This document shows, piece after piece, positions 1 through 7,560 of a stretch of DNA of 7,560 bases; positions within the stretch are counted from its first letter, which is position 1; each line of letters starts with the position of its first letter. The notes under the pieces are model-generated. The model made no database searches and was not told the DNA's origin. It saw nothing but the letters and a program-made list of their open reading frames with translations. This DNA is from a virus (lineage: Duplodnaviria > Heunggongvirae > Uroviricota > Caudoviricetes), in IMG/VR virus record IMGVR_UViG_2541047943_000002, positions 1-7,560 of that record. The stretch is one strand, 5' to 3'. The position numbers and the translations under genes are program-made.

Positions 1-24
1 ATCGTTAAGCCGGGCCGTGAATCC

Positions 25-1011
25 ATGCCGGTATTCCACAATACCCGGGTACTGGTGGAGCCGGAACCGAAAAGCATGCGTAATCTGCCGTCCGGAGTCG
101 TTCCTGCCGTTCGACAGCCGCTGGCAGAGGATAAAATATTACTGCCATTTTTCAGCAACGAACGGGTGATTCGTGCTGCGGGTGGCGCTGGTGCACTGTC
201 TGACTGGTTATTACGTCACGTGAAATCCTGCCAGTGGCCACACGGTGATTATCATCACAGCGAAACCGTCATTCACCGTTACAGTACCGGCGCGATGGTG
301 TTGTGCTGGCACTGTGACAACCAGCTGCGCGACCAGACATCAGAATCACTCGATCAACTTGCTCAGCAGAATCTGGTTGCCTGGATGATTGACGTCATCC
401 GTCACGCAATAAGCGGTACGCAGGAGAGGGAGTTATCGCTGGCCGAATTATCCTGGTGGGCGGCCTGCAATCAGGTGGTGGATGCACTACCTGAGGCAGT
501 AGCGCGTCGTTCGCTGGGATTACCGGTGGAAAAAATCCGCTCCGTATACCGTGAGAGTGACATCGTACCGGGAGAACAGACAGCCATCAGCATACTGAAG
601 CAGCGCACAAAAAATATTGCGCTGCCACTTCACGTCCACCAGCAACAGCCCCCACCCCAGGAAAAGACGTTAGTAAGCATCGCCGTTGATCCGGAGTCTC
701 CGGCTCAGTACCTCCAGCGCCAGAAACCACAACGGGAAGAGATGCCTGTATACACGCGCTGGGTAAAAACGCAGAAATGCATGACGTGTGGCAATCAGGC
801 AGATGATCCGCATCACATCATTGGTCATGGACTGGGAGGGATGGGAACAAAGGCTGACGATTTGTTTGTTATTCCGCTGTGTCGTAAATGCCATAACGAA
901 CTACACGCCGGGGTAAAAGATTTTGAAGAAAAACACGGTAGTCAGTTGTTGTTGCTGATTCGTTTTTTAATGCACGCGAGAAATTCGGGTGTTCTGAAGT
1001 GGAAAGCATAA
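25..1011 (+). CDS. DUF968-family prophage protein (YdfU-like) with C-terminal Cys/His HNH-like zinc motif; probably 5'-truncated by the window edge
   Basis: 328-aa ORF; the frame is open upstream of the first ATG back to position 1 and there is no Shine-Dalgarno before 25, so the real start is probably upstream of the window. C-terminus carries CMTCGN...DPHHIIGHG...CRKCHNELH (CxxC...HH...CxxC-H...H). Immediately followed by rusA (TAA-ATG junction at 1009-1014). Family assignment is from memory. Confidence 0.7.
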   Translation: MPVFHNTRVLVEPEPKSMRNLPSGVVPAVRQPLAEDKILLPFFSNERVIRAAGGAGALSDWLLRHVKSCQWPHGDYHHSETVIHRYSTGAMVLCWHCDNQLRDQTSESLDQLAQQNLVAWMIDVIRHAISGTQERELSLAELSWWAACNQVVDALPEAVARRSLGLPVEKIRSVYRESDIVPGEQTAISILKQRTKNIALPLHVHQQQPPPQEKTLVSIAVDPESPAQYLQRQKPQREEMPVYTRWVKTQKCMTCGNQADDPHHIIGHGLGGMGTKADDLFVIPLCRKCHNELHAGVKDFEEKHGSQLLLLIRFLMHARNSGVLKWKA

Positions 1012-1392
1012 ATGACCGAACGCATAGAATTTGTTTTGCCTTACCCGCCGACGGTGAACACTTACTGGCGACGCCGTGGCAGCACATATTTTGTATCAAA
1101 AGCCGGGGAGCGTTATCGCCGGGCAGTGGCGCTTATTGTTCGCCAGCAGCGCTTGAAATTAAGCCTGTCCGGACGGTTGGCAATAAAAATTATTGCAGAA
1201 CCACCGGATAAGCGCCGCCGTGACCTGGACAATATTCTGAAAGCACCGCTGGATGCGCTGACGCATGCGGGGTTGCTAATGGACGATGAGCAGTTTGATG
1301 AAATCAATATCGTTCGTGTTCAGCCAGTATCTGGTGGACGTCTGGGGGTGAAGATTTACCCCATAATGCTTGAAGGGCAGGTCAAAAAATGA
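1012..1392 (+). CDS. rusA: Crossover-junction endodeoxyribonuclease RusA (Holliday junction resolvase)
   Basis: 126-aa translation has the RusA hallmarks: N-terminal LPYPPTVNTYWRRRG and the catalytic-region motif DKRRRDLDNILKAPLDALTHAGL. GGAAAG Shine-Dalgarno 6 nt upstream of the ATG; stop overlaps the next start (ATGA at 1389-1392). Confidence 0.88.
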   Translation: MTERIEFVLPYPPTVNTYWRRRGSTYFVSKAGERYRRAVALIVRQQRLKLSLSGRLAIKIIAEPPDKRRRDLDNILKAPLDALTHAGLLMDDEQFDEINIVRVQPVSGGRLGVKIYPIMLEGQVKK

Positions 1393-2210
1393 AACTGGAA
1401 GATTTACCGAAATACTACTCCCCAAAATCCCCCGGCCTGACTGATGCATCGGCCTCAACGTCGAAAGATGCGCTGAGTATCACTGATGTGATGGCCGCGC
1501 AGGGCATGACACAGAATCGGGCTGAGATGGGGTTTTCTGCGTTCCTTGGGAAAATGGGCATTAGTATGAATGACAGAGAGCGGGCAACAGAATTGCTGAC
1601 AGAATATGCACTCAGTCGGTGTGATCGCATGGCGGCGTTAAGAAAACTCCCGGCAGAAATAAAACCGGCAGTGATGCGTATTATGGCTTCGTATGCGTTT
1701 GAAGATTATGCCCGTAGCGCGGCGAGCAAAAAACAGTGCCCCTGCTGTCACGGAAAAAAATTTATTGAAAGCGAGGTTTTTACAAACAAGATCCAGTATC
1801 CGGATGGTAAGCCGCCAGTGTGGGCAAAGTGCACAAAAGGCGTGTATCCGTCTTACTGGGAGGAATGGAAAAAAGTCAGGGAGGTGGTCAAAGTTGCCTG
1901 TCCGGACTGTGGAGGGAAGGGAGAGGTATCCACTGCCTGTAAAGATTGTCGTGGGCGCGGTGTTGCCATTCATCGTGAAGAGTCTGAAAAACAGGGTGTG
2001 CCGGTTTTCAGAAACTGTCAGCGTTGTGGTGGGCGTGGCTATGAAAGATTACCTTCAACGGAGGCATTTAATGCCATATGTAATGTAACCGATGCCATAT
2101 CTCTTGATACATGGAAAAAAACAGTTAAACGTTTTTACGATACGCTGGTGGTGCAGTTTGATATTGAAGAAGCATGGGCAGAACAACAACTGAAAAAGGT
2201 GACCAGATAG
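1389..2210 (+). CDS. Q-like late-gene antitermination protein with four CxxCxGxG (DnaJ-type) zinc-finger repeats
   Basis: 273-aa ORF translationally coupled to rusA. Position (after rusA, immediately before a promoter plus intrinsic terminator) matches Q of lambdoid phages. Repeats CPCCHGKK, CPDCGGKG, CKDCRGRG, CQRCGGRG are visible in the translation. Q-family membership is inferred from context and recollection, not from a search. Confidence 0.6.
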   Translation: MKLEDLPKYYSPKSPGLTDASASTSKDALSITDVMAAQGMTQNRAEMGFSAFLGKMGISMNDRERATELLTEYALSRCDRMAALRKLPAEIKPAVMRIMASYAFEDYARSAASKKQCPCCHGKKFIESEVFTNKIQYPDGKPPVWAKCTKGVYPSYWEEWKKVREVVKVACPDCGGKGEVSTACKDCRGRGVAIHREESEKQGVPVFRNCQRCGGRGYERLPSTEAFNAICNVTDAISLDTWKKTVKRFYDTLVVQFDIEEAWAEQQLKKVTR

Positions 2211-2212
2211 CT

Positions 2213-2243
2213 TTGTTGATTTTTCCCGAATCTGTGGTAAATT
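2213..2243 (+). promoter_or_regulatory. pR'-like late promoter (-35 TTGATT 2216-2221, 16-bp spacer, extended -10 TGgTAAATT 2235-2243)
   Basis: Sigma70-like hexamers with correct spacing and a TG at -15/-14, lying directly after the Q-like gene and about 50 nt before an intrinsic terminator. This is the geometry expected for a Q-modified late promoter and its tR'. Confidence 0.5.
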
Positions 2244-2292
2244 TGCCCTAACGATGGGCGTTTTATGCCTGACGTTAGAAGATTTTTTACAC

Positions 2293-2315
2293 CCCGCCGC
2301 CTGGCGGGTTTTTTA
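2293..2315 (+). terminator. tR'-like intrinsic terminator (CCCGCC-gcct-GGCGGG + TTTTTTA)
   Basis: Perfect 6-bp GC stem with a 4-nt loop followed by a 6-T run. A 17-codon mini-ORF (2265-2318) with tandem AGA-AGA codons runs through it. Confidence 0.75.
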
Positions 2316-2436
2316 TGACTGAAATCGCGTCAGTACAGTAAACGCGCTGGTGGTTGCGAATACGGGTCTTTCAGCTTGCTGGCTTTTTCGACAAGAGTTA
2401 TTGGTATGTCACGTTAACCGGAAAAGGGAAAAAGAC

Positions 2437-2634
2437 ATGCTAAAACAGCAGGATATGACAGAAACCGCCAGAGTGGTGTTTAATGAATTAAGCGTTACCG
2501 ACCCGGCGACAGTCGGGGAGATTGCGCAGAATACTTACCTTTCACGTGAACGCTGCCAGTTAATACTGACCCAGCTTGTTATGGCGGGGCTGGCAGACTA
2601 TCAGTTCGGTTGTTACAGACGCCTTCAGTCCTGA
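2437..2634 (+). CDS. Small (65 aa) putative winged-helix DNA-binding protein
   Basis: ATG at 2437 is preceded by AAGGGA 8-9 nt upstream. The motif TVGEIAQNTYLSRERCQLILTQLVMAGL looks like an HTH recognition helix. The stop codon lies inside a strong intrinsic terminator. The longer track ORF from 2350 has no ribosome-binding site and is rejected. Confidence 0.5.
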   Translation: MLKQQDMTETARVVFNELSVTDPATVGEIAQNTYLSRERCQLILTQLVMAGLADYQFGCYRRLQS

Positions 2635-2648
2635 AGGCTTTTTTATTT
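2621..2648 (+). terminator. Intrinsic terminator (GCCTTCA-gtcc-TGAAGGC + TTTTTTATTT)
   Basis: 7-bp stem, 4-nt loop and T-run directly after the small ORF. Confidence 0.75.
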
Positions 2649-2658
2649 GTGGTAAATG
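2648..2658 (+). promoter_or_regulatory. Second copy of the TGTGGTAAAT extended -10-like element, upstream of the methyltransferase gene
   Basis: The 10-mer TGTGGTAAAT at 2648-2657 is identical to the pR'-like -10 region at 2233-2242. No good -35 is present, but extended -10 promoters can work without one. Confidence 0.3.
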
Positions 2659-2784
2659 GGCGGCTGGTGGGTGTTAGGGGCACTCACCAGCCATCTGCTC
2701 ATGCGTCCGGATCACAAGCAAACCTCAGGCCCACTGCTTTGCGCAAAAGCAGAATGAGCCTATCAGAGACAGGCTTAATGATCC

Positions 2785-3843
2785 ATGCTTAGTACTGTAA
2801 AAATATCCAGTTGTGAGTTAATCAACGCCGACTGCCTGGAATTTATCCGGTCGTTACCCGAAAATTCTGTTGACCTGATAGTCACGGACCCGCCGTACTT
2901 TAAAGTGAAGCCTGAGGGCTGGGATAACCAGTGGAAGGGCGACGATGATTACCTGAAGTGGCTGGACCAGTGTCTGGCGCAGTTCTGGCGGGTGCTGAAA
3001 CCTGCCGGAAGTCTTTACCTGTTCTGTGGCCATCGCCTGGCGTCTGATATCGAAATCATGATGCGTGAACGCTTCAGTGTGCTGAACCATATTATCTGGG
3101 CGAAGCCGTCCGGACGCTGGAACGGATGCAACAAGGAAAGCCTGCGGGCGTATTTCCCCGCCACAGAGCGCATTCTGTTCGCGGAACATTATCAGGGGCC
3201 GTATCGTCCGAAAGATGCCGGGTATGCGGCGAAGGGCAGTGCACTGAAACAGCATGTGATGGCCCCGCTGATTTCTTACTTTCGTGATGCGCGTGCTGCC
3301 CTGGGGATAACGGCAAAACAGATTGCTGATGCCACAGGAAAGAAAAACATGGTGTCGCACTGGTTCAGTGCCAGCCAGTGGCAGCTACCGGACGAAAGCG
3401 ATTATCTGAAATTACAGGCGCTGTTTGCCCGGGTGGCAGAAGATAAGCATCAGCGCGGAGAACTGGAAAAGCCACATCACCAACTGGTCAGCACATACAG
3501 TGAACTGAACCGGCAGTATACGGAACTGCAGAGTGAATATAAGCATCTGCGGCGGTATTTTGGTGTGACGGTGCAGGTGCCGTACACCGATGTGTGGACG
3601 CATAAACCGGTGCAGTACTATCCCGGGAAACATCCGTGCGAAAAACCGGCAGAAATGCTGCAGCAGATAATCAGCGCTAGCAGTCGTCCGGGTGACCTGA
3701 TTGCAGATTTTTTCATGGGGTCGGGTTCGACAGTGAAAGCGGCACTGGCGCTCGGGCGTCGTGCAACTGGCGTTGAGCTGGAGACTGAACGTTTTGAGCA
3801 GACGGTTCGGGAAGTACAGGATTTAGTCAGCCAGAACGGATGA
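2785..3843 (+). CDS. Beta-class DNA amino-methyltransferase (N6-adenine or N4-cytosine); apparently orphan
   Basis: 352-aa ORF with catalytic motif IV DPPY (VTDPPYF) near the N-terminus and the AdoMet-binding motif I FxGxG (DFFMGSGST) near the C-terminus, which is the beta-class order. No restriction endonuclease partner is in the window. Confidence 0.85.
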   Translation: MLSTVKISSCELINADCLEFIRSLPENSVDLIVTDPPYFKVKPEGWDNQWKGDDDYLKWLDQCLAQFWRVLKPAGSLYLFCGHRLASDIEIMMRERFSVLNHIIWAKPSGRWNGCNKESLRAYFPATERILFAEHYQGPYRPKDAGYAAKGSALKQHVMAPLISYFRDARAALGITAKQIADATGKKNMVSHWFSASQWQLPDESDYLKLQALFARVAEDKHQRGELEKPHHQLVSTYSELNRQYTELQSEYKHLRRYFGVTVQVPYTDVWTHKPVQYYPGKHPCEKPAEMLQQIISASSRPGDLIADFFMGSGSTVKAALALGRRATGVELETERFEQTVREVQDLVSQNG

Positions 3844-3883
3844 TATTGAAGAATTAATTACGCGTCGTTATTATGCGGCTCCC

Positions 3884-3959
3884 GGCCCTTTAGCTCAGTG
3901 GTGAGAGCGAGCGACTCATAATCGCCAGGTCGCTGGTTCAAATCCAGCAAGGGCCACCA
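3884..3959 (+). tRNA. ileZ: tRNA-Ile2 (anticodon CAU, ileX/ileZ-like; Met cannot be excluded from sequence alone)
   Basis: 76-nt cloverleaf: acceptor GGCCCTT/AAGGGCC, D-arm GCTC-AGTGGTGA-GAGC, anticodon loop CTCATAA, T-arm GCTGG-TTCAAAT-CCAGC, encoded CCA. Very close to E. coli ileX as I remember it. Gene symbol follows Stx-phage convention. Confidence 0.85.
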
Positions 3960-3968
3960 TATCACATA

Positions 3969-4045
3969 CCGCCATTAGCTCATCAGGATAGAGCGCCAGC
4001 TTTCGAAGCTGGTTGCGCGGAGTTCGGGTCCCCGAAGGCGGTCCA
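3969..4045 (+). tRNA. argN: tRNA-Arg (anticodon UCG), non-canonical features
   Basis: 77-nt cloverleaf with D-arm GCTC-ATCAGGATA-GAGC, anticodon stem CCAGC/GCTGG, loop TTTCGAA, T-loop TTCGGGT and encoded CCA. It has C1-G72, an A6/A67 mismatch, an A52/C62 mismatch and U73. Symbol assumed from the ileZ-argN-argO convention. Confidence 0.65.
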
Positions 4046-4058
4046 TTATCTGTATCCT

Positions 4059-4135
4059 GCGTTGTTAGCTCAGCCGGACAGAGCAATTGCCTTCTAAGCA
4101 ATCGGTCACTGGTTCGAATCCAGTACAACGCGCCA
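4059..4135 (+). tRNA. argO: tRNA-Arg (anticodon UCU, argU-like)
   Basis: 77-nt cloverleaf: perfect acceptor stem GCGTTGT/ACAACGC, anticodon loop CTTCTAA, T-arm ACTGG-TTCGAAT-CCAGT, G73, encoded CCA. Confidence 0.88.
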
Positions 4136-4179
4136 CACTTATTTTCCCTGGCTCGCTTTTGCGGGCTTTTTTTAAATGT

Positions 4180-4395
4180 CTCACAATTCAGGCGGTTGAC
4201 TGTTGTCTGGTTTGCGGGGAGTTTGTTAAAAGAAACTGGCATGGTGAATCCCCCTGTGCGGAGGGGCAATCAGCGAGTAGGTATATGGGATAATCGCGGA
4301 TTCAGGTGCTGGTACTGAATTCACCGGGAGGCACCCGGCACCATGCAATGGCACATAGCGCCACTCTCCAGCCCCTCTCCGGAGGGGCTTTTCTG
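4180..4395 (+). repeat. Tandem structured non-coding module, copy A (candidate sRNA / attenuator unit)
   Basis: Shares four conserved blocks with copy B: CTCACAATTCAG, GCATGGTGAATCCCCCTG(t/a)GCGGAGGGGC, CTGAA(t/c)TCACCGGGAGGCACCCGGCACCATG and AGCCCCTCTCCGGAGGGGCTTT. These are separated by non-homologous spacers. Ends in an intrinsic terminator. Confidence 0.6.
4372..4395 (+). terminator. Intrinsic terminator of module A (GCCCCTC-tccg-GAGGGGC + TTTTCT)
   Basis: 7-bp GC-rich stem, tetraloop and T-rich tail. Confidence 0.7.
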
Positions 4396-4583
4396 TGCCG
4401 GATACATCACAGTTTCTGGAACCTTAGGTACTACAGTATCAGTCAGGGTGCTATATTTTCAGATGTGATGAAAGCCTGTCAGCAGGCAGGGCGTATCGGA
4501 AATGACCCAGTAGAGAAAACGTTGACTCAGATACCGGTGCTGAGTTACCGGGAAACCGGCATCACATGACCGCTATCCTTCCA

Positions 4584-4610
4584 GGCCCATCCGCTCCGGT
4601 GGGCCTTTTT
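4584..4610 (+). terminator. Intrinsic terminator in the inter-module spacer (GGCCCATC ... GGTGGGCC + TTTTTA)
   Basis: 8-bp stem (one G-U pair), 6-nt loop and 5-T run. Sits 17 nt after the stop of a 33-codon ORF (4466-4567). Confidence 0.65.
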
Positions 4611-4646
4611 ACTGCAGAAAACAGGTTCCCCGTTAAATGCTATGTT

Positions 4647-4880
4647 GCTCACAATTCAGTAAGTTGACAGTTGCCTGTCAGACTGGGCATTTGTTAAAAA
4701 AATTTCGCATGGTGAATCCCCCTGAGCGGAGGGGCGACTGGTGACGGTATAATCTCTGATTATCAAAACGAGAATGACGCGGGTTTAGTGGCACCGGGCT
4801 GAACTCACCGGGAGGCACCCGGCACCATGTGCATGATGATACAGATACGCGGCTTTAGCCCCTCTCCGGAGGGGCTTTCT
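4647..4880 (+). repeat. Tandem structured non-coding module, copy B (candidate sRNA / attenuator unit)
   Basis: Same four conserved blocks as copy A; contains a perfect TATAAT at 4748-4753 in its variable centre; ends in an identical terminator. Confidence 0.6.
4858..4880 (+). terminator. Intrinsic terminator of module B (GCCCCTC-tccg-GAGGGGC + TTTCTTAT)
   Basis: Identical stem-loop to the module A terminator, followed by a T-rich tail. Confidence 0.7.
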
Positions 4881-5109
4881 TATGGACAAAAAAAGCCCGC
4901 GCTGGGAGACGCGGGCGGCAAGGAATAAACAATAAAACGTGAAGTAATATTTCAGCTGGCGAATAATACCCTATAGTAATCACTCTGCGCAACTGCGCGG
5001 TCTTTTTCGAATTGCGGGCTGTAGTCTCCCTTCTGCCATTGTCCTGTAACTTCCGGACTTCAGCCTGCTCCTTATCTGACTCACAACATTATCCCGCCCG
5101 GGAGGATTC

Positions 5110-6963
5110 ATGGCATTTAAACACTATGACGTGGTCAGGGCGGCATCGCCGTCAGACCTTGCGAAACGACTGACACAAAAACTGAAGGAGGGCTGGCAGC
5201 CGTTTGGTAGTCCGGTGGCCATAACCCCTTATACCCTGATGCAGGCGATTGCAGCAGAAGGTGATGTGGTCGTCAGTGGTGCAACTGAGCCGGAGTGGTA
5301 CTACGTCATCGTACTGGCCGGGCAATCCAATGCCATGGCTTACGGTGAAGGGCTTCCGCTTCCGGATTCATACGATGCGCCCCATCCGCGCATTAAGCAA
5401 CTGGCCCGTCGTAACACAGTGACTCCCGGTGGTGAAGTATGCGTATTTAACGACATCATTCCTGCTGACCATTGTCTGCATGATGTTCAGGATATGAGTA
5501 CGATTAACCATCCCCGGGCTGACCTGAGCAAAGGGCAGTACGGCTGTGTCGGACAGGGCTTACATATTGCCAAAAAACTGCTTCCGTATATCCCTAATAA
5601 TGCGGGGATCCTGCTGGTACCATGCTGTCGTGGTGGTTCGGCATTCACCCAGGGCACGGAGGGGACATTCAGCGAGTCCACGGGAGCCAGTCAGGATTCG
5701 GCTCGCTGGGGAGTGGGTAAGCCGTTATATCAGGATCTGCTTTTCCGCACGAAGGCAGCATTGCAGAAAAACCCGAAAAACGTTTTGCTGGCGATATGCT
5801 GGATGCAGGGGGAATTCGATATGACGAATGCCAGTTACGCCCAGCAGCCAGCAGCATTTCTTGCAATGGTACAGCAGTTCCGTGCTGACCTTGCCGGGCT
5901 GGCAGCGCAGTGTCACGGTGGAAGTCCGGCATCAGTCCCCTGGATTTGTGGCGACACGACATACGCGTGGAAACAAGAACACGGTACGCAATATGAAGTG
6001 GTATATGGTGCATATAAAGGTAAAGAATCCCAGCAGATTTATTTTGTTCCCTTTATGACCGATGGTAGCGGAGTTAATACACCGACAAACAACCCGTCAG
6101 AAGATCCTGATATTGCCGGGTCTGGTTATTACGGTTCGGCATCCCGAACGAACAAAAACTGGGTATCATCAAATCGCCCGACGCATTTCAGCTCATGGGC
6201 GCGTCGTGGCATTATTCCCGATCGTATGGCAACTGCTATTCTGAACGTAGCCGGTCGCACCTTAGCCTTCATTAGTGGTAAGGCACCGGAAATCAAACCC
6301 TCGCCCGGCGGCGACACGCCATCGGGGCCGTCTGAAGATGCATCCATACGCACAATCTCCCTGTTGCCGACAGCCGGAGACGCTGCTGCGCAGGGCTGGA
6401 GCATTAAGAATGGCGGAATTCAGTTGTCAGATGGTGTATTTAAGATCACCAAGCAGAGCAATAAAGCCTGGTCCCTGACGCGCCCGGTGGATGACGCAGT
6501 CTCCCTGCTGACACGGGGTGGCAGACTGAGCTGTAAGTTTCGACTGTCAGGCGCACTGACCAACAACCAGTTCGGTCTGGGAATTTATCTGTATACCGAT
6601 GTAGCGTTACCTGACGTCGTGGCGATGACCGGGACTGGTAACCCGTTCCTGATGTCGTTCTTCACCCAGACCACAGACGGCAAACTGAATCTGATGCATC
6701 ACAAGAAAGCAGGAAACACAAAGTTGGGCGAGTTCGGGAATTACAGTAACGACTGGCAGACGCTGGAGCTGGTGTTCACCGCCGGCAGTGCCACGGTTAC
6801 TCCGAAACTGAATGGAGTGGCTGGCCCGGCATTCCAGGTCATAAAAGACAGTCTGACACTGGGGCTGAATGCGCTGACGCTGACGGATATTACCAAAAAT
6901 GCAGCGTATGGCGTTGAGATAGAAAGTCTGGTGCTGGAGATAAATGCACCGGCATCATCATAA
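5110..6963 (+). CDS. nanS-p: Prophage-encoded sialate O-acetylesterase (NanS-p type: N-terminal DUF1737-like region, SGNH/SASA esterase core, roughly 250-aa C-terminal domain of unknown function)
   Basis: 617-aa ORF with GGAGG Shine-Dalgarno 5 nt upstream. The N-terminus MAFKHYDVV...GWQPFGSP matches the NanS-p/YjhS prophage family as I remember it. A GQSN catalytic block (VLAGQSNAMAYGEG) is present. The position, directly before the holin, is typical of Stx-phage-like prophages. Confidence 0.8.
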   Translation: MAFKHYDVVRAASPSDLAKRLTQKLKEGWQPFGSPVAITPYTLMQAIAAEGDVVVSGATEPEWYYVIVLAGQSNAMAYGEGLPLPDSYDAPHPRIKQLARRNTVTPGGEVCVFNDIIPADHCLHDVQDMSTINHPRADLSKGQYGCVGQGLHIAKKLLPYIPNNAGILLVPCCRGGSAFTQGTEGTFSESTGASQDSARWGVGKPLYQDLLFRTKAALQKNPKNVLLAICWMQGEFDMTNASYAQQPAAFLAMVQQFRADLAGLAAQCHGGSPASVPWICGDTTYAWKQEHGTQYEVVYGAYKGKESQQIYFVPFMTDGSGVNTPTNNPSEDPDIAGSGYYGSASRTNKNWVSSNRPTHFSSWARRGIIPDRMATAILNVAGRTLAFISGKAPEIKPSPGGDTPSGPSEDASIRTISLLPTAGDAAAQGWSIKNGGIQLSDGVFKITKQSNKAWSLTRPVDDAVSLLTRGGRLSCKFRLSGALTNNQFGLGIYLYTDVALPDVVAMTGTGNPFLMSFFTQTTDGKLNLMHHKKAGNTKLGEFGNYSNDWQTLELVFTAGSATVTPKLNGVAGPAFQVIKDSLTLGLNALTLTDITKNAAYGVEIESLVLEINAPASS

Positions 6964-7046
6964 AAAGTGAGCCAGTCAAATGGAAGGTATCGTTAAACTC
7001 ACCGGTAGTGTCAGTGGGTCGTCTGAGATGCCTGCATGAGTTATCA

Positions 7047-7078
7047 GAGCCATCAGTACTTAACTGGTGGCTTTTTTT
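7047..7078 (+). terminator. Intrinsic terminator between esterase and holin genes
   Basis: Stem AGAGCCATCAG / CTGGTGGCT (with a G-U pair), 7-nt loop, then TTTTTTT. Confidence 0.6.
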
Positions 7079-7113
7079 ATTGTTGTCAGCTTCCGGATAA
7101 CGGGAGACGGGGT

Positions 7114-7329
7114 ATGGACCAGATGGAAAAAATCACAACAGGTGTGTCATACACCACGTCAGCGGTGGGAACGGGCTACTGGTTCCTGCAGTTGCTGGAC
7201 AGGGTTTCCCCGTCTCAGTGGGCGGCAATAGGCGTGCTGGGGAGTCTGCTGTTTGGGCTGCTGACATATCTGACTAACCTGTATTTCAAAATCAGAGAGG
7301 ACCGTCGTAAGGCTGCACGGGGAGAGTAA
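7114..7329 (+). CDS. S: S21-type pinholin (class II holin) with dual-start motif M-D-Q-M
   Basis: 71-aa product [71 protein letters not shown] closely resembles the phage 21 S pinholin as I remember it (two transmembrane segments, charged C-terminus). GGAG is 8 nt upstream. The 97-aa track ORF from 7036 starts before the terminator and is rejected. Confidence 0.85.
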
Positions 7330-7333
7330 TTCA

Positions 7334-7560
7334 ATGACTCAAAACTATAAACTGATTGTGAAAGGGATCCGCAATTTTGAGAATAAAGTTACGGTAACTT
7401 TAGCGTTACGGGACAAAAAACGCTTTGACGGTGAAATTTTTGACCTGGACATCTCGCTGGACCGTGTTGAAGGTGCCGCGCTGGAGTTTTATGAGGCAGC
7501 AGCCAGAAGGAGCATCAGACAGGTCTTCCTGGATGTTGCTGCCGGGTTATGTGAAGGGGA
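7334..7560 (+). CDS. 5' part of a late-region gene of unknown function (YdfR/DUF1327-like), truncated by the window end
   Basis: ATG at 7334 with GGAGAG 6 nt upstream. The frame stays open for 75 codons to the window end (MTQNYKLIVKGIRNFENKVTVTLALRDKKRFDGEIFDLD...). Position between holin and the expected endolysin matches ydfR-like genes. Contains AGA, AGG and AGA codons within a few residues. Family recalled, not verified. Confidence 0.55.
   Translation, partial: MTQNYKLIVKGIRNFENKVTVTLALRDKKRFDGEIFDLDISLDRVEGAALEFYEAAARRSIRQVFLDVAAGLCEG

Follow-up and report, generated by a model that had tools for sequence, protein, structure and literature searches.

M.EcoGII is a commercial enzyme for chromatin footprinting, e.g. 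in MadID and in other long-read m6A mapping. M.EcoGII and M.EcoGI are non-specific adenine methyltransferases from prophages of E. coli O104:H4 C227-11 (PMC5778455); members of this family methylate adenine non-specifically, are toxic under constitutive expression and are unexpressed in the native lysogen (PMC5778455; PMC4659465). Their published proposed role is anti-restriction self-methylation of phage DNA (PMC5778455), and in the literature examined the native expression of M.EcoGII is called "tightly controlled" or "silent", with the mechanism not given. In Mu-like prophages mom can be replaced by a gene for a non-specific adenine methyltransferase, with a Com homologue encoded upstream (PMC3299994).

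Here we describe a methyltransferase locus in a 7,560-nt stretch of viral DNA (IMG/VR record IMGVR_UViG_2541047943_000002, positions 1 to 7,560; hereafter the window). The best overall explanation, which we regard as reasonably likely, is that of a Q-antiterminated late-operon methyltransferase equipped with a leader RNA and a winged-helix cassette. The features on which it rests are collected in Table 1.

Table 1. Coordinates of the features of the methyltransferase locus, numbered from the first nucleotide of the window
Feature	Position	Strand	Evidence or remark
Late-gene antiterminator Q, 273 aa	1389..2210	+	PF03589 (2.5e-52), phrog_127; relatives annotate quuQ/antitermination protein
Candidate late promoter PR' (TTGATT, 16 nt, TGgTAAATT)	2213..2243	+	read from sequence
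tR'-type intrinsic terminator, CCCGCC-GCCT-GGCGGG + T7	2293..2316	+	terminator scan
Conserved 38-nt element, CTTGCTG-N13/14-(C/A)AGAGTTAY-NTGTRTG	2375..2412	+	ahead of winged-helix ORF, conserved across genera
65-aa winged-helix protein gene, phrog_331, NCBI name 'TrmB family'	2437..2634	+	ORF; predicted fold; conservation
P0 hairpin + T-run, second terminator	2621..2645	+	terminator scan; hairpin 2621-2638
Structured 5' leader RNA of the methyltransferase (putative)	2652..2787	+	covariation, conservation
Leader helix P1	2657-2661/2729-2733	+	
Leader helix P2	2662-2673/2681-2692	+	
Chi octamer GCTGGTGG	2663..2670	+	within 5' arm of P2
Leader helix P3	2696-2703/2713-2720	+	
Leader helix P4	2734-2752	+	
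Leader helix P5	2754-2759/2773-2778	+	
M.EcoGII-family non-specific N6-adenine methyltransferase, 352 aa	2785..3843	+	PF01555; 94% identity to M.EcoGII
Three phage tRNA genes (CAT anticodon, i.e. ileZ-type; Arg-TCG; Arg-TCT)	3884..4135	+	same operon, downstream of methyltransferase

The methyltransferase and its late-operon setting

The Pfam search identified PF01555 in the methyltransferase (4.6e-43, covering residues 29–340). The DPPY motif (residues 35–38, nt 2887–2898) is N-terminal to FMGSG (residues 310–314; FxGxG, nt 3712–3726) with the target-recognition domain between them, which is the motif order of the beta class, as the original prediction had read it. The protein is identical to M.EcoGII at 327 of 349 residues, the reference being taken from a machine-read supplement of PMC11551740 that contains a few reading errors, so that the true identity is perhaps slightly higher. 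The region is also 94.8% identical at the nucleotide level to phage 1720a-02, which Murray et al. 2018 named as carrying a very similar methyltransferase (PMC5778455). A 150-residue insert between the two motifs had been noted in the original prediction; residues ~115–280 indeed find no alignment to solved beta-class methyltransferases, while both conserved halves do align, but the segment is an ordinary target-recognition domain (~nt 3262–3495) followed by a linker (~nt 3496–3561; map taken from PMC11551740) and not an added module, since the middle region of M.EcoGII itself consists of a four-helix HTH bundle (160–237) and a charged two-helix linker (PMC11551740). Judged by these comparisons the protein (dN/dS ~0.06) is a member of a known enzyme family, with no novelty in the enzyme itself, and it would be expected to modify adenine in any sequence context; for its non-specificity and its silence in lysogens the source is the literature on enzymes of 94–99% identity. 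An AF2 model has been published for a protein 94% identical to it.

No endonuclease adjoins the methyltransferase on either strand or occurs elsewhere in the window (ORF and Pfam search), and none was seen between or beside the small ORF and the methyltransferase in 19 related loci, so the enzyme is an orphan as originally proposed. The defence-family search of the window returned only generic methyltransferase models and, for the small ORF, nothing beyond noise.

The locus belongs to a stx-less, Stx-type lambdoid prophage and lies at the promoter-proximal end of the late operon, in the order Q, candidate PR', tR', small ORF, methyltransferase, ileZ/argN/argO tRNAs, sRNAs, nanS-p and holin. 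Stx phages annotate the same order (Q, hypothetical protein, DNA methylase, tRNAs, stx2AB, nanS), with the tRNA trio annotated as ileZ/argN/argO. The candidate hexamers between Q and the first terminator scored under the promoter-scan threshold, and their assignment as the late promoter PR' is inferred. At the tR' position a hairpin with a T-run is kept in most relatives despite differing sequence, and most phage matches have their mosaic boundary there (query position 94–95); terminator-like sites in the window number 14, against 3.5 expected. Both tR' and the second terminator P0 consist of a GC-rich hairpin followed by a T-run at a conserved position, as rho-independent terminators do, and P0 is retained with different sequences in relatives, its U-tract being weak in many of them (UUUCUGCUG). 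Taken together, the identity of the enzyme as an M.EcoGII-family member and its setting in a Q-dependent late operon are highly probable, and the position behind Q and tR' is consistent with the reported silence of the enzyme in lysogens.

Dam and CcrM are orphan methyltransferases with gene-regulatory roles, and a similar role as an epigenetic regulator active in the lysogen had been suggested for the present enzyme. This is hardly credible for a gene that a Q-dependent operon places beyond two terminators, the more so as its homologues give neither a methylation signal nor a transcript in lysogens (PMC5778455; PMC4659465), lack sequence specificity and are toxic when expressed (PMC5778455); for the homologues the idea is already largely refuted. 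The other suggestion made for the enzyme, anti-restriction self-methylation of phage DNA, is the one that agrees with the literature proposal for the family (PMC5778455).

The upstream winged-helix gene

The original prediction described the 65-aa ORF as a putative winged-helix protein with its own ribosome-binding site and terminator, and all three elements can be recognized: an AAGGG Shine-Dalgarno sequence stands 9 nt ahead of the ATG, the stop codon sits inside the P0 hairpin, which is followed by a T-run, and the predicted fold is H1-b-H2-H3-wing, i.e. a minimal winged helix (pLDDT 85.8). Searches against Pfam gave TrmB, MarR_2, HTH_24 and DprA_WH, all below the curated cut-offs (TrmB 17.4 bits against 25.6, MarR_2 14.3 against 27), and NCBIfam gave no match, so that the ORF shares with TrmB/MarR-type regulators only the fold class; the profile search of solved structures with the winged-helix protein likewise gave no significant relative. 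With 7 acidic against 6 basic residues the protein is weakly acidic, an uncommon property among nucleic-acid binders. A dN/dS of ~0.09 indicates purifying selection, and by this measure and its conservation the ORF is a real gene.

The predicted pairing with the methyltransferase holds as well: in 17/17 species genomes the ORF is found 147–153 nt ahead of the methyltransferase, and it lies upstream in 77 of 78 close viral loci and in 192 of 205 leader-containing instances. Such an association far exceeds chance. Five loci have the methyltransferase without the small ORF and four show the converse, and several whole clades keep the leader and the methyltransferase but lack the winged-helix ORF, which is therefore not required. 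Where the winged-helix protein has diverged (40–55% identity), the versions occupy the identical position.

The 38-nt element ahead of the ORF follows the gene closely, being present in 8/8 winged-helix loci checked, the 40–55% identical versions included, and in 0/10 ORF-less loci checked. It shows no clear dyad symmetry and matches the sigma-70 hexamers at only 6 of 12 positions, so that Q-independent expression of the gene is hypothetical. A promoter was considered both in this element and in the spacer downstream of the ORF and rejected, since neither passes the promoter scan and manual matches reach only ~6/12.

The winged-helix gene is seen only beside the M.EcoGII-type methyltransferase, from which we infer that its product modulates, as an accessory, either the expression of the enzyme or its action; that the protein regulates the methyltransferase is a tentative suggestion. 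Alternatively, the cassette could be an independent moron that travels with the methyltransferase and, for example, counters m6A-dependent (type IV) restriction, reads methylated DNA or regulates host or other phage genes. This we consider unlikely: the gene was not found away from the methyltransferase (17/17 genomes; 192 of 205 leader-containing instances), diverged versions hold the same place, and known defence families gave no match beyond noise. The exclusive linkage and the position kept by diverged versions suggest a functional tie over hitch-hiking.

The conserved leader

No part of the locus is better conserved than the 150-nt spacer between the small ORF and the methyltransferase. 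In the original prediction the segment 2640–2790 had been named solely as a protein-binding target; what was overlooked is that it contains a covarying structured RNA of ~135 nt, in which P1, P2 and P3 form a three-way junction followed by the hairpins P4 and P5, and that this RNA is the obligate companion of the methyltransferase. The leader end is 9 nt ahead of the methyltransferase ATG, which has no Shine-Dalgarno sequence, and a GATC occurs at 2780–2783. Invariant blocks and a constant length are maintained across genera, and 67 of 136 alignment columns are invariant while synonymous sites are saturated. The model built for the leader (R1) found a single match per locus in 48 of 49 loci, nearly all matches ending at position +2 of the methyltransferase ATG, and a stable hairpin directly 5' of the leader was present in 270/280 instances, ORF-less loci included.

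Compensatory changes affect 21 of the 31 leader pairs, a count inflated by the fitting of the alignment (A3) to the model structure, the covariation of P2 and P3 being visible in raw sequences too, and none of 500 shuffles attained the score. Pairing reaches 91.8%, against 29–56% in slid controls, and the helices are kept with wholly different sequences in methyltransferase clades only 61–65% identical to the window. One G-U pair, almost invariant in alignment A2, and additional variable G-U pairs can form in RNA of the + strand alone. Rfam 15 contains no match to 2640–2790 at E<=10, nor to the leaders of four diverse relatives at E<=1. On this evidence the leader is very probably a functional RNA structure, and the chances that it controls translation of the methyltransferase appear about even. 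A possible alternative long-range helix, GGUCAcAAGC/GCUUacUGAUC, which could sequester the pre-AUG region, appears in the single-sequence fold; it is supported in clades L200, L217 and L254 and broken in L227, L229, L240 and L143.

Coding explanations of the spacer were rejected. A 60-aa ORF at 2610–2792 has no family matches, and no frame stays open across relatives; a mini-ORF from the conserved AUG at 2656 (MGGWWVL* in many relatives) is unconserved in divergent clades.

Constraint on the DNA itself, as expected if the spacer were a Chi hotspot of recombination, a promoter or an operator, would have several points in its favor: the invariant 21-mer includes Chi, a cluster of three Chi sites in the same orientation occupies 2144–2670 (window total 4, against 0.34 expected), the P4 palindrome has a typical operator shape, and both strands of the spacer fold about equally well (z-scores -4.55 and -4.30). 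It is nevertheless improbable. Chi is invariant in a large subclade, but in divergent clades the arm that contains it is wholly replaced and the hairpin is kept by compensatory changes, for which reason Chi was also discarded as the main constraint on the 21-mer; in addition, the covariation and the strand-specific G-U pairs described above speak for RNA, and the promoter scan found no promoter-like site in the spacer.

The palindrome in P4, CTGCTTT(A)GCGC(A/T)AAAGCAG, also bears on the resemblance to controller proteins put forward in the original prediction. The C proteins of restriction-modification systems form dimers with an Xre-type HTH; binding to C-boxes ahead of the C-R operon, they control the endonuclease. 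As in the systems of C.PvuII, C.AhdI and C.Esp1396I, a small regulator-type gene stands here beside a methyltransferase that needs timed expression, and the small protein might itself be of this kind or function much like one, as a dimeric factor that would set the timing of methyltransferase transcription from operators close to its own promoter, the endonuclease having been lost. A DNA-binding-type fold encoded directly upstream of the methyltransferase and a palindrome ~40 nt ahead of its ATG, with a central hexamer that remains palindromic in three variants, would fit such a function. We find it very improbable, however, as the fold is a winged helix and not an Xre-type HTH (Pfam HTH_3 was unmatched), the endonuclease is absent from the window and from the 19 relatives, no sigma-70-like promoter was found in 2640–2784 by the promoter scan, and no convincing symmetric operator or palindromic C-box was found upstream of the small gene. 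The palindrome is equally present in clades without the small gene and behaves as an RNA hairpin. Membership among the C proteins is thus not upheld.

The leader precedes the methyltransferase always, while the winged-helix ORF is dispensable in several clades, and the leader sequence does not co-vary with the presence or absence of the ORF, which argues against the leader as a dedicated target of the winged-helix protein.

Proposed mechanism and comparison with known systems

For the Q-antiterminated late operon favored here, the following course of events can be proposed. Transcripts from the candidate PR' would end at tR' and P0, leaving the methyltransferase off in the lysogen; upon induction, Q-modified polymerase would pass both terminators and the methyltransferase would be made late, so that progeny DNA would be hypermethylated and, in the next host, shielded against restriction. 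Of this scheme the analysis shows the gene order and the family assignment, while its timing and its anti-restriction purpose are conjectural. The leader may act in cis, limiting or gating translation of the methyltransferase, whose overproduction is toxic. The winged-helix cassette, i.e. the 38-nt element, the Shine-Dalgarno sequence and the 65-aa ORF, is inserted between tR' and P0 in many phages, and its product could modulate the methyltransferase in a manner functionally comparable to Com. Going further, the leader could represent a new class of cis-regulatory RNA, a ligand-sensing or protein-binding three-way junction that gates methyltransferase translation with the winged-helix protein as its optional trans-acting partner, which would make the locus a lambdoid counterpart of the Mu Com/mom switch, invented anew from structures unrelated to it; as a whole this is a doubtful proposition.

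The small ORF and the leader are mentioned nowhere in the literature examined on the methyltransferase and on Stx and lambdoid phages, and the methyltransferase is unmentioned in a comparative paper on pR' (PMC6266700) and in one on Stx-phage architecture (PMC8136144). Relative to that literature and to Rfam 15, the covarying leader and the methyltransferase-specific winged-helix gene are two new conserved candidates for control of the enzyme, and the methyltransferase gene is now placed behind Q and tR' in the late operon. In many Shiga-toxin phages the module lies directly upstream of stx, so that any effects on read-through or RNA stability would lie on the path of toxin transcription.

The closest relatives of the enzyme, M.EcoGII and M.EcoGI, share with it the length class, the motif order, the HTH target-recognition domain with a charged linker and the kind of prophage, and nothing substantive distinguishes the enzymes; the position behind Q and tR', the upstream winged-helix gene and the conserved leader are not described in the M.EcoGII/M.EcoGI literature examined. 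The arrangement of Q, PR' and tR' is like that of lambda, 82 and 933W (and of the StxS sRNA, PMC7547250), in that transcription would start at a candidate constitutive late promoter, terminate at once and, with Q, continue into stx or lysis genes, with many internal terminators. Here, in contrast, PR' is a candidate only, and the first cargo of read-through is the winged-helix cassette, the structured leader and the methyltransferase.

The best functional analogy is provided by com-mom of phage Mu and the com-hin1523 and hia5 operons of Mu-like prophages (Hattman 1999; Drozdz et al. 2012, PMC3299994). The translational activator Com, which binds the leader of its target mRNA, is a Cys4 zinc finger of ~62 aa. 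The present protein has a predicted winged-helix fold and conserves just two Cys residues (C40 and C59), and the two are unrelated in sequence and fold. The com and mom genes are adjacent, whereas here a terminator hairpin and 150 nt intervene; the Mu leader is a single inhibitory stem-loop, whereas the present one is a multi-helix RNA; and several clades do without the small gene, its regulatory action being putative. The likeness lies in the logic: a late, host-toxic, promiscuous adenine-modifying anti-restriction enzyme that is silent in lysogens (toxicity according to PMC5778455) is preceded directly upstream by a gene for a small protein of a nucleic-acid-binding type, and in its mRNA a structured leader adjoins the start of translation. 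If the leader is truly a regulatory RNA, it adds a widespread phage RNA family and offers a second, independent case of the com-mom logic by which a promiscuous DNA-modifying enzyme is tamed.

Late-operon setting of the window

The gene order of the window, taken from an ORF listing and from family, tRNA and RNA scans, is collected in the table below. In two annotated relatives, Stx2_EH1910 (an Stx2a phage) and phiP27, the genes likewise run from Q or another antiterminator through a hypothetical protein and a DNA methylase to tRNAs; where the window has its sRNAs, these phages have stx2AB. Judged by the gene order and these relatives, the window is the start of the late operon of a stx-less Stx-type lambdoid prophage. 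A 2-kb query finds at least a partial match in 3339 of 5426 complete E. coli genomes, and a match covering 80% or more of its length in 1754. A plausible candidate for the late promoter PR' (TTGATT, 16 nt, TGgTAAATT) lies between Q and the first hairpin, the candidate terminator tR'. Terminator-like sites are in excess between 2100 and 5200 (14 vs 3.5 expected), as would be expected for an operon transcribed by antiterminated polymerase.

Features of the window
Feature	Position	Strand	Basis
DUF968/HNH nin-region gene	25-1011	+	ORF listing, family scans
Chi octamer	636-643	-	
rusA	1012-1392	+	ORF listing, family scans
Q antiterminator, 273 aa	1389-2210	+	PF03589, 2.5e-52
Chi octamer	2144-2151	+	
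PR' candidate	2216-2243		
tR' candidate, GC hairpin + T7	2293-2316	+	
Chi octamer	2346-2353	+	
38-nt conserved element	2375-2412		
Small (winged-helix) ORF, 65 aa	2437-2634	+	ORF listing
P0, second hairpin + T-run	2621-2645	+	
Spacer, 150 nt	between second hairpin and methyltransferase	+	
Mini-ORF of leader	2656-2679		
Chi octamer	2663-2670	+	
Methyltransferase, 352 aa	2785-3843	+	PF01555, 4.6e-43
Three tRNAs	3884-4135	+	tRNA scan
First tRNA, anticodon CAT	3884-3959		ARAGORN
STnc100 sRNA copies, two strong and one weak	4210-4887	+	RNA scan
Strong STnc100 copy	4210-4400	+	RF02076, 136 bits
Weak STnc100 copy	4439-4612		
Strong STnc100 copy	4678-4887	+	RF02076, 165 bits
nanS-p	5110-6963	+	
P21-type holin	7036-7329	+	

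Several further features of this region deserve mention. The tandem STnc100 copies, related to PasD sRNAs (2026 preprint), fill the interval between the tRNAs and nanS-p; each closes with a terminator. Two of the 14 terminator-like sites, at 4370 and 4857 where sRNA copies end, are hairpins of almost the same sequence (AGCCCCTCTCCGGAGGGGCT). The C-terminal half of Q contains a DnaJ-type CXXCXGXG zinc-finger repeat (PF00684, 8.1e-07, slightly under the cut-off). The first tRNA is called Met by ARAGORN and ileZ (Ile, via modified C34) in Stx-phage records. In phiP27 a 409-aa gene of the GIY-YIG nuclease family (2200-3429 of that locus) stands directly upstream of the winged-helix/methyltransferase module, in place of Q. 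The 7.56 kb hold four Chi octamers (GCTGGTGG), where shuffles lead one to expect 0.34; three of them, all in one orientation, lie inside a 530-bp stretch where the late operon begins. By analogy with lambda, this orientation would be active for RecBCD arriving from the downstream cos side. Other genera partly conserve the copy at 2346.

The methyltransferase and its winged-helix cassette

The original prediction of a small ORF paired with a methyltransferase that lacks an endonuclease is borne out: the enzyme exhibits DPPY at residues 35-38 and FMGSG at 310-314 in addition to its PF01555 match, and no endonuclease was found near it among the window ORFs or in family scans. It is identical to M.EcoGII at 327 of 349 residues (94%), the comparison being with a machine-read text from the SUPREM paper supplement, in which a few of the mismatches are artefacts. 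Phage 1720a-02, named as a carrier of a very similar enzyme (Murray et al., PMC5778455), is 94.8% identical in nucleotides across the whole region (our match H2). By sequence, then, the methyltransferase is a member of the already well-known M.EcoGII family, and its dN/dS is ~0.06. Published work on M.EcoGII and M.EcoGI (95% identical to each other) shows that both methylate adenines of DNA and RNA whatever the context, that their constitutive expression slows growth, and that the native lysogen bears no methylation signal from them (PMC5778455); for a 99% identical homologue from ST131, RT-PCR detected no transcript (PMC4659465). The suggestion of anti-restriction self-methylation thus coincides with the published view of the family, while that of an epigenetic regulator in the lysogen is contradicted by the gene position and the reported silence. 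The supposed 150-residue insert, the stretch for which solved beta-class enzymes offer no alignment, is not an addition; it is the ordinary target-recognition domain of the family, described in M.EcoGII as a bundle of four helices of HTH type with a charged linker (PMC11551740), and a weak Pfam HTH_3 match at residues 167-195 agrees with that description.

Comparative evidence marks the small ORF as a real gene: it falls in phrog_331 (1.9e-37), its 333 homologue clusters come from Escherichia, Shigella, Salmonella, Klebsiella, Citrobacter, Buttiauxella and others, and between genera its dN/dS is ~0.09 with dS saturated. The conserved start is the ATG at 2437; longer annotated N-termini do not align. 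Wherever a one-genome-per-species collection encodes the small protein (17 loci), the methyltransferase lies downstream, across a spacer of 147-153 nt; of the viral contigs that carry a closely related methyltransferase, 78 were informative and 77 of these contain the small ORF. Stx2c phages first seemed to lack it, but they have a version at the same place (~50% identity by tblastn, measured on L245, a locus with an identical leader), and two other clades have further versions of 40-55% identity. Several clades without the ORF retain spacer and methyltransferase (one locus, L240, reads Q, tR', hairpin, leader, methyltransferase), and among 205 instances of an invariant 20-mer, in the viral contigs searched and the other loci compared, the methyltransferase occurs alone in 5 and the small ORF alone in 4. 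From its distribution, the ORF is dispensable. The 38-nt element accompanies every version of the ORF checked and is absent wherever the ORF is absent; element, Shine-Dalgarno and ORF therefore behave as a single cassette that has been inserted after tR' and ahead of the second hairpin.

Variant arrangements were also observed. In four IMG/VR recombinants (L117, L153, L177, L196) the winged-helix ORF, P0, P1 and most of P2 are followed by unrelated AT-rich sequence replacing the methyltransferase, the breakpoint lying in the P2 3' arm, inside the leader, in 4 of 4. One clade (L200, L254, L256, L263, L264, L268, L271, L290, L293) has a longer winged-helix ORF that reaches the leader, P0 being absent and the stop codon lying in CUGUGA right before AAAUGGGCG.

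A structured leader RNA

The spacer is constant in length across genera, with 67 of 136 columns invariant, while the methyltransferase protein is only 70-78% identical and synonymous sites are saturated; no reading frame in it is conserved across the relatives compared. In the RNAalifold prediction a three-way junction leads on to two hairpins: P1 (UGGGC/GCCCA), P2 (a hairpin of 12 bp), P3 (closed by C-G in 15, U-A in 7 and A-U in 4 sequences), the hairpin P4, and P5, which ends 9 nt before the methyltransferase ATG. A search with the published SUPREM ancestral sequence recovered a distant methyltransferase clade (61-65% identical to the window), where every helix is kept with different sequences, P2 being GGCGUACAUGAUG...CAUCGUGCACGCC or GGCAGAAGAGUG...CACUACUUCUGCC vs GGCUGGUGGGUG...CACUCACCAGCC in the window type. 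A covariance model built from the first alignment has a single match in 48 of 49 loci, ending at ATG+2 of the methyltransferase in nearly all. On the alignment of these matches, compensatory changes were counted at 21 of 31 pairs (111 cells), scores that 0 of 500 shuffles reached, and sliding of the partners lowered pairing from 91.8% to 29-56%; this alignment was fitted to the model, so the figures lean towards structure, and the P2 and P3 substitutions are also plain in unaligned sequences. One G-U pair is nearly invariant in the first alignment and further, variable G-U pairs occur; the fold is therefore specific to the transcribed strand. The comparative evidence strongly supports the spacer as a structured RNA, a constant companion of the methyltransferase. 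P0 precedes it in 270 of 280 instances, among them loci that lack the winged-helix ORF. In none of the clades compared does the methyltransferase ATG have a Shine-Dalgarno, and GATC stands just ahead of it in nearly all clades. Rfam 15 has no match to the leader in the window or in four diverse relatives, and a leader RNA tied to M.EcoGII-type genes is apparently new and undescribed.

At the start of the leader stands a conserved AUG, which in most relatives begins a 7-codon mini-ORF (MGGWWVL-stop); read in that frame, the Chi octamer supplies its two adjacent Trp codons. Since divergent clades do not keep the peptide and the mini-ORF has no clear Shine-Dalgarno, it is probably just a side effect of the P1/P2 sequence. 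In another clade (L228, L230, L236, L242), with a 40%-identical winged-helix ORF, the leader is shortened: P2 with Chi is kept, the remainder is reduced, and the covariance model scores 22-23 bits in the first three loci and finds no match in L242.

Possible mechanism and known systems

The analysis itself establishes the gene order, the family of the enzyme, purifying selection on each gene of the pair, the linkage statistics and an RNA structure with covariation right against the start codon; non-specific m6A activity, toxicity and silence in lysogens come from the literature on close homologues (PMC5778455, PMC4659465). We envisage that in the lysogen PR' transcripts would halt at tR' and P0, and that upon induction read-through by Q would lead to late methyltransferase synthesis and hypermethylation of progeny DNA before packaging. 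The leader may limit or gate translation of the Shine-Dalgarno-less message for this dangerous enzyme. The winged-helix protein could be an accessory modulator of methyltransferase expression or of the enzyme itself; this is the weakest step, since the protein is dispensable and slightly acidic, the leader does not change with its presence, and its sole private conserved DNA is the 38-nt element before its own gene. Its stop codon lies inside P0, so a terminating ribosome would melt P0; speculatively, this could couple small-ORF translation to read-through by non-antiterminated polymerase.

The pairing is real and its headline gene well known; new is the regulatory company tied to M.EcoGII-type genes, namely the leader RNA and the methyltransferase-specific winged-helix cassette. 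The controller (C) proteins of restriction-modification systems, to which the layout had been likened, are not the nearest precedent: the fold is wrong, the endonuclease is absent and no convincing C-box was found upstream of the gene. A nearer regulatory precedent is com-mom of Mu. Its adenine-modifying enzyme is made late and is toxic; the gene just before it encodes Com, a small protein that binds nucleic acid and activates translation of the enzyme by reshaping an mRNA structure that inhibits it. Mu-like prophages of Haemophilus and Neisseria also have com homologues, followed there by non-specific adenine methyltransferases in place of mom (PMC3299994; PMC6483171). The small protein of the window, with two conserved Cys and a predicted winged-helix fold, is not a Com, and the likeness to com-mom, drawn by analogy, is one of logic and not of family.
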